A DNA stretch of 64,000 nt from Verrucomicrobiia bacterium (GCA_041395165.1 JAWLBA010000001.1:4925-68924), one strand, 5' to 3'; counted from the stretch's first letter, positions 2,591 to 35,383 are shown. The notes: generated by a model from the sequence alone, not told the origin. Translations and numbers: made by a program.

Positions 2591-2642
2591 GGTTCATTAT
2601 TATTATAAATTAAATTTCGCTTTTAAACAACGTTCTACATTT

Positions 2643-3111
2643 TTAGGTATGCTGTGAAGAAATATCGCCTCCAAGCTTAGCAGTTTCTTTAATAAGCGAG
2701 GAGCTAATGCAAATAAAATTATCTTTTGGGGTCAAAAAAAACGGTTTCAATATCGGGAGCGAGTTTACGATTCAAAAGTGCTAGCTGAAATTCAAATTCA
2801 AAATCTGCCACCGCTCGTAAGCCTCGCACAATAGCATGGGCCTGACGCGATTTCTCGCAAAATTGACTAATAATCCTTCAAACGTGGCCACCTCTACTCG
2901 ATTACCCAAACTGGCCACAGCCTCCAGAGCCATCGCTTTGCGTTCCTCCAAAGTAAAAAGCGGTTTTGGGTTCATTCGGAGCAATGGCAAAGATAACCTT
3001 TTGAAACAAATGCAGCGCACGCTCTAAAACGTCCAAATGCCCATTAGTAATGGGATCAAAGCTGCCTGGATAAATGGCGATGGAAGAGGAAGGTTTCACA
3101 AAGTTAATCAA
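2643..3111 (-). pseudogene. coaD: phosphopantetheine adenylyltransferase CoaD, disrupted by three frame changes
   Basis: N-terminus [21 protein letters not shown] is in frame A (ORF 2902..3111). [19 protein letters not shown]...GLLVNFAR is in frame A+1 (ORF 2781..3020). [38 protein letters not shown] returns to frame A. The C-terminus [26 protein letters not shown] shifts again after an 8-T homopolymer (2741..2748 on the plus strand). All pieces are collinear with CoaD. Confidence 0.75.
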
Positions 3112-3250
3112 TAGTTTTGTGAGATAAGCTACAGAAACTAAGAAGAAAGGACAAGTTCTTAGCCCATCGATTTATAGCTTATTAACTAAATAAGTTTTAG
3201 GTTTTATGTAACTGGCTCGGCAGATTTGAGGGCTTTTAGCTACACTTAAG

Positions 3251-3924
3251 TTACATTCCCAACCAAGCACTCGGGTTGCGAACAGATTTTTCTGCTTCTT
3301 GATGTAGTGTGTTAAAAACTTTATCTAATTTTTCGGTCTTAGGTTCTCCCAAAATGACAGATTCGATAGGACCGGTAGTTAAGATATCAACGGCTTCTAC
3401 ACCAGCCCAAGCCACATCACTTACGGTTAGACCCGCTACAGCGCCGCCTAATGCCGCTAGCTTTTGGTAGCATCGCCAAATCTTGTTTCGGCTTTACTCA
3501 CATCTTCGAAATGGCCATCTTTCAAAAGAGCTTCATCGACATCGGCTCTTAATCCCTCTTCATATTGGCGAGTTAAAACCGCCTTTCTTGTCTCTAAAAC
3601 ATCTTTATTTAACTGCAAAGCTTCTTGAGCTTCTTTAATTGCTAAATCTGATCCGCCTTCCATCTGGAGTTTTCGCAGCTTTTCCTCAGCTTCTTGAACG
3701 GCCTGATAATAATTTCCATTACAAAGCACTTCATCAACTCTTGCGGGTATGGCTTGCCGAAACTCGCGAGTTAAAACCTCTTTTCTAGTTTTCAAAACAT
3801 CTTTAGCTAAATCCAAAGCTTCTCCAGCAGCTTTAACTTCGGCTTTAGCAGTAGTTTTTGCCGCGAGTATTGCTGCTTCATCACTTAAACGCAAAGCTCT
3901 ACGCAGCCAACGACCTAAACCCAT
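3251..3924 (-). pseudogene. paralog family member P1 (subfamily with TTGPIE C-module), frameshifted
   Basis: ORF 3457..3924 (155 aa) contains an internal 33-aa tandem repeat. After its stop, the offset-2 frame continues as LAALGGAVAGLTVSDVAWAGVEAVDILTTGPIESVILGEPKTEKLDKVFNTLHQEAEKSVRNPSAWLGM, collinear with the C-terminus of the 7143..7685 protein. Confidence 0.6.
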
Positions 3925-3996
3925 AATAAACTCCAGTTATCATCAATTAAGAAATTTTTTTATTTATTTAATGAATGAACAATAAGAATAGCATAT

Positions 3997-4002
3997 TGTC
4001 AA
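3997..4002 (-). promoter_or_regulatory. sigma70-like -35 box (TTGACA) inside an AAATTTGACAAT motif, 73 nt upstream of the P1 start
   Basis: Plus strand shows tattgtcaaattta at 3994..4007. The same A-tract plus TTGAC element recurs upstream of other family genes. Confidence 0.3.
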
Positions 4003-4107
4003 ATTTAAGTTTTGCAATAATGCGGATCAAAACTGTTAGGATAATTAGGTTAGATTAACGAATTCCGAAAGGGAAATGTTGCTGGAAATTAGCTACTGGG
4101 GAAGTAT

Positions 4108-32723: not shown

Positions 32724-32744
32724 CCATTCAACAATAAGCATTTT

Positions 32745-33353
32745 ATGGAAAAAATAGATTTATACCGGATTCACAAATCAGAATACATTGCCCCTAAAAA
32801 ACCAACGCTATTACAGATCGAGCCTGCTTATTATCTTGCCATTAGCGGCCAAGGAAAACCTGGCAATGAAAAGTTTACAACTAAGATTGAAGCATTGTAT
32901 GGAGTCGCTTTTACATTAAAAATGACGCGTAAATTTAAAGGGCAACAAGATTACACTATAGGCAAATTAGAATGCCTATGGTTCATTGATGGCAAAAAGA
33001 TTGCTGATCAAACATCGCAAGATCGATGGCGCTGGAAACTACTCATTCGAACTCCTGATTTTGTTACTCAATCCGAATTAGATCATACTATTACCACTCT
33101 TTTAAAAAAAGGAAAGGAACCCGCGATTCGTGAGGTTAACCTAGAACTCTTAAACGAGGGTCAGTGCGTGCAAATGCTTCATGTCGGACCTTACGACCAA
33201 GAATCAAAAACCATTGCAATCATGAAATCCTTTACCGAAGCTAAGGGATTAAGCTTAAAAGGGCCTCATCACGAAATCTATCTTTCAGATCCTCGCAGAG
33301 TTCCTTCTGAACGATTAAAAACTATTCTTCGTGAACCAGTAACAACTCAATAA
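32745..33353 (+). CDS. GyrI-like small-molecule-binding domain protein
   Basis: 202-aa ORF with architecture similar to the C-terminal half of the preceding gene (PAYYLAISGQG...HEIYLSDP). Confidence 0.65.
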   Translation: MEKIDLYRIHKSEYIAPKKPTLLQIEPAYYLAISGQGKPGNEKFTTKIEALYGVAFTLKMTRKFKGQQDYTIGKLECLWFIDGKKIADQTSQDRWRWKLLIRTPDFVTQSELDHTITTLLKKGKEPAIREVNLELLNEGQCVQMLHVGPYDQESKTIAIMKSFTEAKGLSLKGPHHEIYLSDPRRVPSERLKTILREPVTTQ

Positions 33354-33414
33354 ATTAAAAACAGGGGTTGAAACCCACTTACGGCTTATCGGAATTGACG
33401 AAACATTAAATCTG

Positions 33415-34339
33415 GTGCATGTTATTAGCATGGAGGAGAAGAACGTTAAATACGTTAGCCGCTGCTTTGATTGCAGTATTCGATTAACTGGTTTTTTACT
33501 AGGGGCTCTTGCTTTGTTTTTTTTAGAAAATTCGTCACTAGCGGTTAATGCTTTAAACCGCGCACGATTTACGGAAGTAGTCAATCAAGTAGAAGTGATT
33601 CCTCCTAATGACGCTCCTAAAAAACAGGCACAAGTTGGCTCTCTTTTTCAAATGCCTGAAATTTTACAAACGGGTAGCCGATCCCGTGCAGAACTGGTTG
33701 CAGAAGATAAAACCGTAACGCGTGTGGGAGCCAATACCATTTTTTCCTTTCAACCTCGGGATCGTACGATTCAATTGAAACGTGGCAGCCTGCTTTTTCA
33801 TGCTCCGAAAGGGCGTGGTGGCGGAACGATTCAAACCGCTGCCGCCACTGCCGCGGTGTTGGGCACAACGATTATTGTTATGACCACCGATGACGGTGGC
33901 TTCAAATGTCTCGTATTGGAAGGCCAAGGAGAAGTGACTTTGCCCAATGGATTTCGTCAAAAAAGTTAATGCCGGCGAGTTGGTTTTTATTCGGCCGGGC
34001 TCCAAAAAAATTTCCAAACCCTTACCCTACAATCTTTCGCAACAGGTGGAAAATTCCTTGCTCGTTCAAGGTTTTTCACATCCGCTACTTTCTTTAAATA
34101 AAATTAGTCATGCGATTAATGCGCAACGACAAAATTTTCCATATCTTGCCTACGAATCTGAAGCTCCATTTATTGCTAATTTTCAACATCAAAAAGATTA
34201 CGCTTTGGTGGATCCCAATTCGCGAGTTCATTTAAATCCCACTTCTCAAAAAGAGGCGCCAAAACCTGAGCCGCCCACCACTTTGCCTCCACCCACACGC
34301 AAAAATCCTCCTCGACTTCCACCCCCTATTCCAGGTTAA
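33415..34339 (+). pseudogene. FecR domain protein (anti-sigma-like, TM segment, Pro-rich C-terminus) with a frameshift near 33945..33965
   Basis: ORF 33415..33969 ends ...GEVTLPNGFRQKS*. The offset-2 ORF from 33947 reads MDFVKKVNAGELVFIRPGS..., which is the continuation expected for a FecR domain. An A6 run lies at 33959..33964. Confidence 0.6.
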
Positions 34340-34351
34340 TATTGGATTTCT

Positions 34352-35383
34352 ATGCGATTTCTTTTTCGCTGTTGCCTGATAGGAATTTTTGGAAGTTTTT
34401 TTATTCTATCAATTCAGTGCCAAACTGCAGCGCAACAAATTGAACAAGTCGAACAAGTCAATCGACTCCGTGATTTAAGACGCTCGCTCTTTGATGTGCC
34501 CGAAACAATGAATAAGGCGCCCTTAATTTCCGAAGAAGAGTTGGAAGATGTCGGCCCCCAATATTTGCTCCGTTTTAAACCTAAACGAGAATGGTTCGAA
34601 GCCTTGTTCGATGTCCAATATTACTACACTTCCAACTTCAATCTAAATGAAGAAAAAAGTGAAAGGAATCCCGTAGGCGAAATTGACACGGGCGTGCTCG
34701 TGAGCACAGCTCAATTTGCGTTTGCTCCCAGCCCCTTCCGGGTTTGGGACGGTTGGTTAAGCCCGCGAGTGGGTTACCGTCATCAATGGTATAATTATGG
34801 TTTGGATAATACGGACAACCAACTCAACAACTTCGATTTTGATGTGCAAACAGTTTTTGGCGAAGTGAGTTATCAATTTTTAGAAAATTGGAATGCCCGG
34901 ATTGGGTTAAGTTGGACGCGACTTCTCAACCACGAAGACGTCGGCAATCGAGAAGATTACAGTGAATTTTATAAGGAATTTGTGCCAGAGTGGGAAATTC
35001 AACGCTACATCAAAATTAATCCCAACTCTCTCTTCGTGATCGGTTATGAAGGCAACTATCATCATACCGAAGTCGATCCTACCCCCAACGCCTACATTAA
35101 CGATCGCATGGATCATATCTTAACATTAACTTATCTGCATCAACTCACTTCCCACATTATTTTACAACCGTATTATCGCTTCACCTATACCGATTTTTGG
35201 GAAAATGGAGATCGCAACGATTTTCTTCATTCTTTCGGTCTAGTAGCGAGTTATCATTTCAATAAATGGTCCAGCATTCGCCTCTTTTGCAACTACGATA
35301 AAAGAGAATCTGACGATCCTTTCGTTCCCGACTATGAAAAAATTGATGCAGGCGGCGGTGCAACTTTAGTTTTTCGATTTTAA
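34352..35383 (+). CDS. outer-membrane beta-barrel protein (343 aa)
   Basis: Signal peptide, alternating amphipathic beta-strand pattern and a C-terminal ...ATLVFRF ending in Phe. Confidence 0.55.
   Translation: MRFLFRCCLIGIFGSFFILSIQCQTAAQQIEQVEQVNRLRDLRRSLFDVPETMNKAPLISEEELEDVGPQYLLRFKPKREWFEALFDVQYYYTSNFNLNEEKSERNPVGEIDTGVLVSTAQFAFAPSPFRVWDGWLSPRVGYRHQWYNYGLDNTDNQLNNFDFDVQTVFGEVSYQFLENWNARIGLSWTRLLNHEDVGNREDYSEFYKEFVPEWEIQRYIKINPNSLFVIGYEGNYHHTEVDPTPNAYINDRMDHILTLTYLHQLTSHIILQPYYRFTYTDFWENGDRNDFLHSFGLVASYHFNKWSSIRLFCNYDKRESDDPFVPDYEKIDAGGGATLVFRF

Follow-up and report, generated by a model that had tools for sequence, protein, structure and literature searches.

Why are so many reading frames broken within one short stretch of a bacterial genome, and do the breaks belong to the organism or to its assembled sequence? 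The question is raised by a 64,000-nt stretch of DNA (in the following, the window), which forms part of a 458-kb contig in an NCBI metagenome-assembled genome (MAG) labelled Verrucomicrobiia bacterium (proteins MEZ5404597-651, locus tags R3F23_), and in which 12 of approximately 59 genes are disrupted, including coaD, the gene for pantetheine-phosphate adenylyltransferase. A previous sequence-only reading of the region had proposed that the genome is undergoing reduction, with accessory genes the first to decay. The breaks resemble consensus errors or are, at best, an extremely young burst of inactivation, and steady genome erosion is not supported. On balance, we regard most of the frame breaks as local indel-type consensus errors in the MAG contig, lying over an accessory island with genuinely fast turnover.

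The main comparator was a sister MAG (GCA_019694135.1), of which four loci (L004, L013, L006, and L014) are collinear with window positions 1-20393 and 23436-64000 at approximately 87-95% nucleotide identity. Overall, the collinearity with this sister extends over ~58 kb, and nucleotide identity is ~89-90%; more distant relatives (L003, L007-L009, L011, and L012) served as outgroups. Contigs of the same species were sought by exact look-ups with PlsX, DnaN, and P3a, by RsmD scans of genome and metagenome contigs, and in Logan, all of which returned only distant matches, and none of the window's breaks was present in the contigs of relatives (sister MAG, Logan, ENA, JGI). Besides the broken genes, approximately 45 further genes were aligned to the sister. 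For frame correction, the indels listed below were removed before translation, comparison with Pfam, and calculation of the ratio of nonsynonymous to synonymous divergence (dN/dS).

The disruptions amount to 27 small indels and one clear nonsense codon (Table 1), and no uncompensated indel was found in the ~45 other genes aligned to the sister. For all ten broken genes that have an ortholog in the sister, this ortholog is intact. Apart from the nonsense codon, only small indels were observed, their removal restores conserved proteins, and they are local to stretches of sequence and not to functional units.

Table 1. Disrupted genes and the P-family array, with positions counted from the first letter of the window
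Feature	Position	Strand	State
coaD (pantetheine-phosphate adenylyltransferase)	2600..3099	-	five frame segments, four indels relative to sister
P-family array (P1, P2, P3a, P3b, P4)	3250..7976	-	inserted between GNAT and coaD
P1, P-family paralog	3250..3924	-	frameshift near 3455-3465
P3b, P-family paralog	6314..7081	-	premature in-frame TAA at 6440-6442
P4, P-family paralog	7143..7976	-	N-terminus frameshifted; sister ortholog 278 aa, intact
GNAT acetyltransferase	8129..8594	-	three frames; intact with 150-156 aa in L003, L004, L011
M91 (NleD-like, HExxH) metallopeptidase gene	8705..9386	+	Pfam Peptidase_M91; first ~23 codons out of frame
Secreted DNRLRE/CBM96-like paralog B (secB)	11098..12093	+	stops early at codon 280 of 333
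P-like "12390" gene	12231..13205	+	N-terminal 50 codons frameshifted; sister ortholog 325 aa
Ala-rich gene	17991..20435	+	813 aa in sister; here 274 aa and 523 aa
FecR-domain protein	33415..34339	+	+1 in A-run at 33964 (sister AAAAG, window AAAAAA)
Conserved 527-aa membrane protein	36995..38568	-	split; intact with 525-527 aa in L006, L007, L008
Type II secretion protein F (T2SS-F) gene	57082..58083	-	+1 at 57315 in T-run; sister 320 aa, intact

The most damaged gene is coaD, which is strongly constrained in all relatives and carries lesions of -2 at 2963 (A6 to A4), +2 at 2854, +1 at 2734 (T7 to T8), and +1 at 2650. As a core gene of the coenzyme A (CoA) pathway, coaD is normally essential. 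The sister protein (P0004) is intact with 164 aa and shares 93-96% amino acid identity with the corrected window CoaD, which matches Pfam CTP_transf_like (PF01467) over positions 1-132 of 133 (E = 7.6e-26). Left uncorrected, even the longest open reading frame (ORF) of coaD (79 aa) has no Pfam match, and the uncorrected sequence does not hold the full domain in one frame. The GNAT gene has five indels (-1 at 8511, +2 at 8412, +1 at 8145, -1 at 8134, and -1 at 8127), and its corrected protein covers positions 3-116 of 116 of Acetyltransf_1, while T2SS-F has one T2SSF domain in the actual ORF and two once corrected. Full-length Pfam matches were restored by correction in these three proteins.

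Correction likewise yielded proteins with 88-98% identity to the sister and zero in-frame stops for P4, secB, the membrane protein, and the 813-aa gene. In P4, residues 9-53 are shifted by +1 at 7947 and -2/-2 at 7813/7807, and the original frame has a stop. In secB, three 1-bp deletions (11902, 11963, and 11977) were found, with zero substitutions within 60 bp to either side of the first, and the corrected protein is 98% identical to that of the sister. The lesions of the membrane protein gene (-1 at 38077, 38233, 38272, and 38287; -6 at 38255) all lie inside 210 bp, and its corrected translation is conserved. The 813-aa gene is interrupted by -1 at 18806 and +1 at 18884 at a synonymous divergence (dS) from the sister of 0.023, and both resulting ORFs cluster at 90% with P0296, the one 813-aa protein that the sister has in their place.

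Among the remaining genes, the FecR-domain gene is intact, with 299-303 aa, in the sister and three other relatives, and the 12390 gene carries -2 at 12236, +1 at 12326, and -1 at 12371 within its first 150 bp, plus in-frame indels, with the residual ORF beginning at TTG 12390. Upstream of the M91 ORF and in another frame, positions 8705-8773 encode the peptide MGVLKKNGVDVQESKENPVWAML, which can be aligned to the N-terminus of homolog P0245. The 155-aa N-terminal ORF of P1 (3457-3924) and its conserved C-terminal segment ("VDILTTGPIE...") lie in different frames; P1 is without an ortholog in the sister, where that region is deleted. In P3b, the TAA replaces a Gln found in paralog P2 and in the sister ortholog, and the next 42 codons are open and conserved. 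No compensating frameshifts that would keep the proteins readable were found, and every shifted segment checked contains stops.

All eight loci named as disrupted in the sequence-only reading (coaD, P1, P3b, GNAT, the HExxH ORF, secreted paralog B, the 12390 gene, and the FecR-like gene) are indeed broken where it had placed them. Its numbers of shifts were too low for coaD (three, against four indels relative to the sister), GNAT (two, against five indels and three frames), and secB (two, against three 1-bp deletions), and it had overlooked the P4 N-terminus, the split 813-aa gene, the 527-aa membrane protein, and T2SS-F, the latter two of which lie beyond its range. The ORFs of 1200, 779, 744, 624, 607, and 580 aa were, as it had reported, all open, and its argument that random error is unlikely to give such a distribution holds: with uniform placement by gene length, 27 lesions are expected in ~21 of 59 genes, compared with the 12 observed (P ~ 1e-5), and the chance of all six long ORFs escaping is 0.002. 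The claimed concentration in accessory genes holds in part. The lineage-specific island at 2.6-13.2 kb is enriched, with 8 of the 12 broken genes (Fisher P = 2.6e-5, computed at 8 of 11 with the 813-aa locus then not included), but coaD, T2SS-F, the FecR-like gene, and the membrane protein gene are hit as well. Non-random placement alone does not prove biology.

Within genes, the lesions are patchy and do not fill the whole length (combined P = 0.0025 for within-gene clustering). Patches of 75-700 bp were observed at 2650-2963, 7807-8511 (GNAT, spacer, and P4 N-terminus), 11902-12425 (secB C-terminus, spacer, and 12390-gene N-terminus), 18806-18884, and 38077-38287. Approximately 8 of 24 classifiable lesions lie in homopolymer runs of at least 4, and hundreds of longer runs are unaffected, with zero shifts in the 183 runs of at least 6 and the 66 runs of at least 7 in the open genes (52 kb of coding sequence). 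Poly-A/T runs number 96 compared with 86 expected under a first-order Markov model, an enrichment that is due to dinucleotide composition. Mismatches beside indels are not generally enriched (14% vs 12% background); the exception is the 813-aa gene, where identity to the sister is ~99% around the indels and each of the two adjoins one of the very few mismatches. Several lesions lie inside segments of very low divergence from the sister. No shared motif was apparent by eye around the non-homopolymer lesions, and long near-identical repeats, a possible sign of long-read assembly, are absent.

Selection acting on the corrected genes resembles that on the intact ones. Frame-corrected dN/dS relative to the sister was 0.051 for coaD, 0.078 for secB, 0.114 for FecR, 0.137 for the membrane protein, and 0.139 for GNAT, with 0.02-0.17 in intact genes, and the segments between two shifts encode amino acids nearly identical to those of the sister. 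Amino acid changes on the window and sister branches, as assigned with outgroups, numbered 3 vs 1-2 for coaD, 8 vs 5 for FecR, 8 vs 6 for GNAT, and 24 vs 23 for the membrane protein, and seven intact genes gave 53 vs 52. At the nucleotide level, 155 vs 127 changes were counted in the four broken genes and 278 vs 258 in the intact genes; the codon-position distribution was unchanged, with no excess at positions 1+2. In the 3.4 kb of the four broken genes, ~18 excess substitutions stand against 12 frameshifts. Coding density is ~95% of the window when broken genes and remnants are counted, and no transposase or insertion sequence (IS) was found among the ORFs of at least 75-100 aa read in the 64-kb window.

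These values can be set beside those of Sodalis glossinidius and SOPE, compared with S. praecaptivus (PMC3499248, PMC3914690). The window resembles these genomes in its high fraction of broken genes against a close intact relative, in the predominance of small frameshifting indels, and in having some genes multiply hit at low divergence. Unlike them, it is nearly without nonsense codons, terminal or large deletions, and IS insertions, its lesion density far exceeds what its excess divergence would lead one to expect, protein evolution on its branch is not accelerated, and its lesions are patchy, cross gene borders, and damage a core biosynthetic gene worst. Many genes broken against an intact close relative is a Sodalis-type hallmark seen in the 64 kb; a mixed lesion spectrum, relaxed selection, lineage-wide acceleration, lower coding density, and mobile-element expansion were not observed there. 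Of the disrupting mutations in Sodalis and SOPE, ~53% are small internal indels and 16-19% nonsense mutations, the rest being terminal deletions and IS insertions (PMC3499248); against this spectrum, the probability of at least 27 small indels among 30 lesions is 1.7e-5, and that of at most one nonsense mutation among 28 is 0.03. Nascent symbionts gather ~2-4 disrupting mutations per kb at low divergence, mainly small frameshifting indels, and SOPE has ~2 per kb of pseudogene at 4.3% neutral divergence (PMC3499248). At the SOPE rate, ~0.8 lesions would be expected where 12 were found (P ~ 1e-10, or ~6e-6 at a generous upper bound of divergence), and lesions per excess divergence are at least 5-15 times the Sodalis calibration. 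Because dN/dS cannot detect very recent relaxation, as the Sodalis authors caution (PMC3499248), we did not rely on it alone but on the spectrum and on the number of lesions per unit of divergence.

Ongoing genome reduction with accessory genes decaying first is a poor fit to the damage to coaD, the patchiness, dN/dS, the flat rates, the lack of IS elements, and the indel spectrum. The relaxed selection that dN/dS was to reveal is not seen, as the frame-corrected broken genes (0.05-0.14) behave like intact neighbours; the comparison with close relatives that had been suggested confirmed the breaks against an intact sister and showed no acceleration on the window branch.

Local consensus errors explain why the spectrum is indel-only, why the corrected frames are pristine, why patches cross gene borders, and why core genes are hit, and they also account for the missing lineage-wide signature of weak selection. 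What was observed are the positions and types of the lesions, their patchiness, the selection signatures, and the intact copies in the sister; the technical cause is our inference from these. Such errors could arise where stretches were bridged or polished from error-prone reads; alternatively, the reads of co-occurring near-identical strains could have been collapsed into one consensus. Both kinds of effect are documented in the literature, i.e., long-read assemblies in which genes are fragmented through indels (Kastor paper, PMC12007338) and apparent frameshifts created by a consensus of collapsed alleles in Trypanosoma brucei (PMC8445201). The window is like such assemblies in that almost all lesions are 1-2-bp indels, coding is otherwise undamaged, relatives are intact, and several lesions fall in one short stretch, some of them exactly at rare sites that differ from a near-identical relative; it is unlike them in that the rest of the contig is nearly error-free even in long homopolymers and two thirds of the lesions lie outside homopolymers.

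Divergence along the window offers a setting for the second route. Although dS to the sister is ~0.45 in most genes, it is only 0.02-0.19 in the 813-aa gene, secB, P4, secA, and the 779-aa gene, which suggests, as judged from the aligned sequences, recent DNA exchange between the window and sister lineages in accessory genes. The two lineages probably also co-occur, and under these conditions a collapsed-strain consensus and failed polishing would be expected; the low-divergence segments, together with the 813-aa lesions at rare mismatches, lie where collapsing the reads of co-occurring relatives would cause trouble. The organism itself would then most likely hold working copies of coaD, GNAT, secB, the 813-aa gene, FecR, the 527-aa membrane protein, and T2SS-F. 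The P-family array, the M91 insertion, and the missing second P-like gene are probably real differences, as is, probably, the nonsense codon in P3b, and some of the P-family truncations are possibly real. The finding is most likely not a biological feature.

Several points weigh against consensus errors. The judgement was made from the assembled sequence and not from reads or the assembly record. Only about one third of the lesions lie in homopolymers of at least 4, and six are 2-bp events, which are less typical of residual long-read errors. Outside the broken genes the contig is very accurate, with 183 homopolymers of at least 6 unshifted in 52 kb of coding sequence, and any errors must therefore be confined to strictly local stretches. 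The stop in P3b arose by substitution and not by an indel. Real decay by deletion has affected P2 and P3a in the sister, so that genes are indeed being lost from the island, which contains 8 of the 12 broken genes. The ratio of indels to substitutions in the 813-aa gene (2:33) is compatible with neutral decay, very recent relaxation would escape dN/dS as cited above, and at a lineage ratio of indels to substitutions of at least 1:3 a very young real burst is only ~2 sigma off.

It is less probable, while still a possibility to be taken seriously, that the lesions are real and reflect a very recent, indel-biased inactivation of about one fifth of the genes including coaD, either as the earliest erosion or as the aftermath of an indel-prone mutator. 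In its favour are the non-random distribution with its enriched island, the ~45 genes free of lesions despite many homopolymers, the 2-bp and non-homopolymer indels, the genuine nonsense codon in P3b, the sister's deletions in the same array, and the neutral-looking ratio of the 813-aa gene; the burst is viable if the lineage ratio reaches the above bound. The density known from nascent symbionts, reached mainly through small indels, fits as well, by inserting between rsmD and GNAT, the M91 gene could have interfered with how the operon downstream (rsmD-GNAT-...-coaD) is expressed, and truncated or re-initiated fragments might arguably stay under selection. The burst would have to be so young that substitutions had not had time to register. 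However, six genes are multiply hit without excess substitution or an excess at codon positions 1+2. The lesions per excess divergence exceed the Sodalis calibration, hardly any nonsense codons, large deletions, or IS elements are seen, the intact genes are not accelerated on the window branch, and the genome is compact. Special pleading would be needed for the patches across gene boundaries and for coaD, the loss of which requires a CoA precursor supplied by a partner or a second copy, neither of which is indicated in the window. Were the indels real, which we consider unlikely, a verrucomicrobium of free-living type that still exchanges DNA with its sister would have lost ~20% of its genes almost exclusively by 1-2-bp indels and in a small fraction of its divergence time, with coaD, a T2SS component, and an anti-sigma-like FecR protein among the casualties, and this would mean an indel-dominated mutator episode or the first moments of partner dependence, at a stage preceding substitutions, deletions, and IS elements.

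Functional frameshifts, i.e., phase-variable contingency loci, programmed ribosomal frameshifting, or transcriptional slippage at poly(A/T), are very improbable. The lesions in FecR, T2SS-F, coaD (2734, 2963), secB (11963, 11977), and the membrane protein (38077) do lie in A/T runs of 5-8, but most lesions are outside repeats, the shifted frames contain stops, and the relatives carry plain intact genes. A single run-associated shift occurs only in FecR (A6) and T2SS-F (T6); a single lesion in a long tract near the 5' end, as in a contingency locus, was not found, and the multiply hit genes show mixed ±1/±2 lesions mostly outside repeats, with genes carrying 3-5 lesions of different sign and size. 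A slippery heptamer or stimulatory structure was not apparent, none having been searched for. Uniform random sequencing error or generic homopolymer miscalling along the contig, which would suit a set of lesions that are all but one small indels, eight of them in runs of at least 4, is rejected by the placement statistics (12 genes hit instead of ~21, six long ORFs spared), the unshifted runs, and the ~45 aligned genes without an uncompensated indel, and its likelihood is negligible.

Whatever the origin of the indels, a real, fast-turnover accessory island exists here, and the P3b nonsense codon fits it. In the distant relatives L011 and L012, rsmD-GNAT-coaD-yceD-rpmF-plsX is uninterrupted, and in the clade of window and sister the gap between GNAT and coaD holds the P family, with five copies in the window; the sister keeps P4 and P3b, with P3a and P2 only as stumps. 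P-family proteins (~180-330 aa) have a coiled-coil-like basic N-terminus and a C-terminal ECLGGYNPxCxxED...WGVGF/P motif, and are located at 3250-7976 and 12231-13205 in the window, at 7363-9867 in L004, and at 3402-4376 in L003. They have no Pfam match, and just 3 relatives were found among 5.8 billion proteins. Their identity is 52-68% where neighbours have 82-92%, and their dN/dS is 0.3-0.5. The M91 gene is inserted in opposite orientation between rsmD and GNAT, is absent there in L003, L004, and L011, and among the compared loci occurs in the window lineage only, with a closest homolog of 47% identity. In other M91 homologs, the domain is located at the C-terminus of longer proteins, one of which (P0246) has an RHS-core-like motif before it, as judged by eye.

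The island recalls birth-and-death turnover of secreted or effector families: copy numbers of the P array, the DNRLRE/CBM96 pair, and M91 vary among the window, the sister, and other relatives, the P family evolves fast, and truncated array copies are present in both genomes, although the DNRLRE/CBM96 pair is not fast (dN/dS 0.08-0.18). Such turnover covers the island only (P1, P3b, P4, the 12390 gene, perhaps secB and M91) and leaves coaD, GNAT, FecR, the membrane protein, and T2SS-F unexplained. At 13205-13285, between the 12390 gene and the M42 peptidase, the second P-like gene of the sister (319 aa) is missing.

The low-divergence stretches described above lie at window positions 7400-7800, 10400-12000, and 14700-20400. 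The last includes the 779-aa and 813-aa paralogs (15515-20435), which are very Ala/Glu-rich with a higher G+C content (0.49), share a C-terminal "...NMSVDPS...APKV", and have no Pfam match; their dN/dS relative to the sister is 0.29-0.46. Synteny with the sister ends at ~20393-20435, beyond which the sister encodes a GT4 glycosyltransferase, GlgB, and an RHS protein. Past ~20.4 kb, the window has PabB and the 1200-aa FG-GAP/Calx-beta protein, both of which are on another sister contig. GC skew flips from ~+0.25 to -0.25 at ~20393-20435, and the 523-aa ORF and PabB share 44 bp at their 3' ends. The junction at ~20.39 kb is either a recent rearrangement or a chimeric join.

Strong sign changes of GC skew are also seen at ~47-48 kb and ~60 kb. 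At dnaN-recF (39.5-41.6 kb), dnaA is not adjacent, and a DnaA-box cluster as an origin marker was not found. The block from FecR to dnaN (33415-41569) is inverted relative to mpl-msbA-hscA in L007 (DRR438507 contig), and the usp gene at 41860-42360 is not at that position in the sister. Between recJ and lpxK (60301-60309), the window lacks two small genes that the sister has (138 and 82 aa), and the S8 peptidase at 50196 has a 45-bp in-frame deletion of one tandem unit relative to the sister.

In the public record, fragments of the broken genes are listed by NCBI as ordinary proteins, i.e., MEZ5404606 (280 aa), MEZ5404607 (271 aa), MEZ5404603 (200 aa), MEZ5404612, and MEZ5404613 (11098-11940, 12390-13205, 8784-9386, 17991-18815, and 18903-20435, respectively). 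None of them carries a pseudogene mark, so that pseudogene numbers taken from the annotation of this MAG would be underestimates. If the breaks are artefacts, approximately one fifth of the genes in this region of a public MAG would be mis-annotated as fragments, and metabolic conclusions along the lines of "no CoA synthesis" or "no T2SS" would be wrong for the organism. If they are real, gene inactivation in a non-model phylum would here be caught at an unusually early stage, with a spectrum that is atypical in being limited to indels and with a normally essential gene among the losses.

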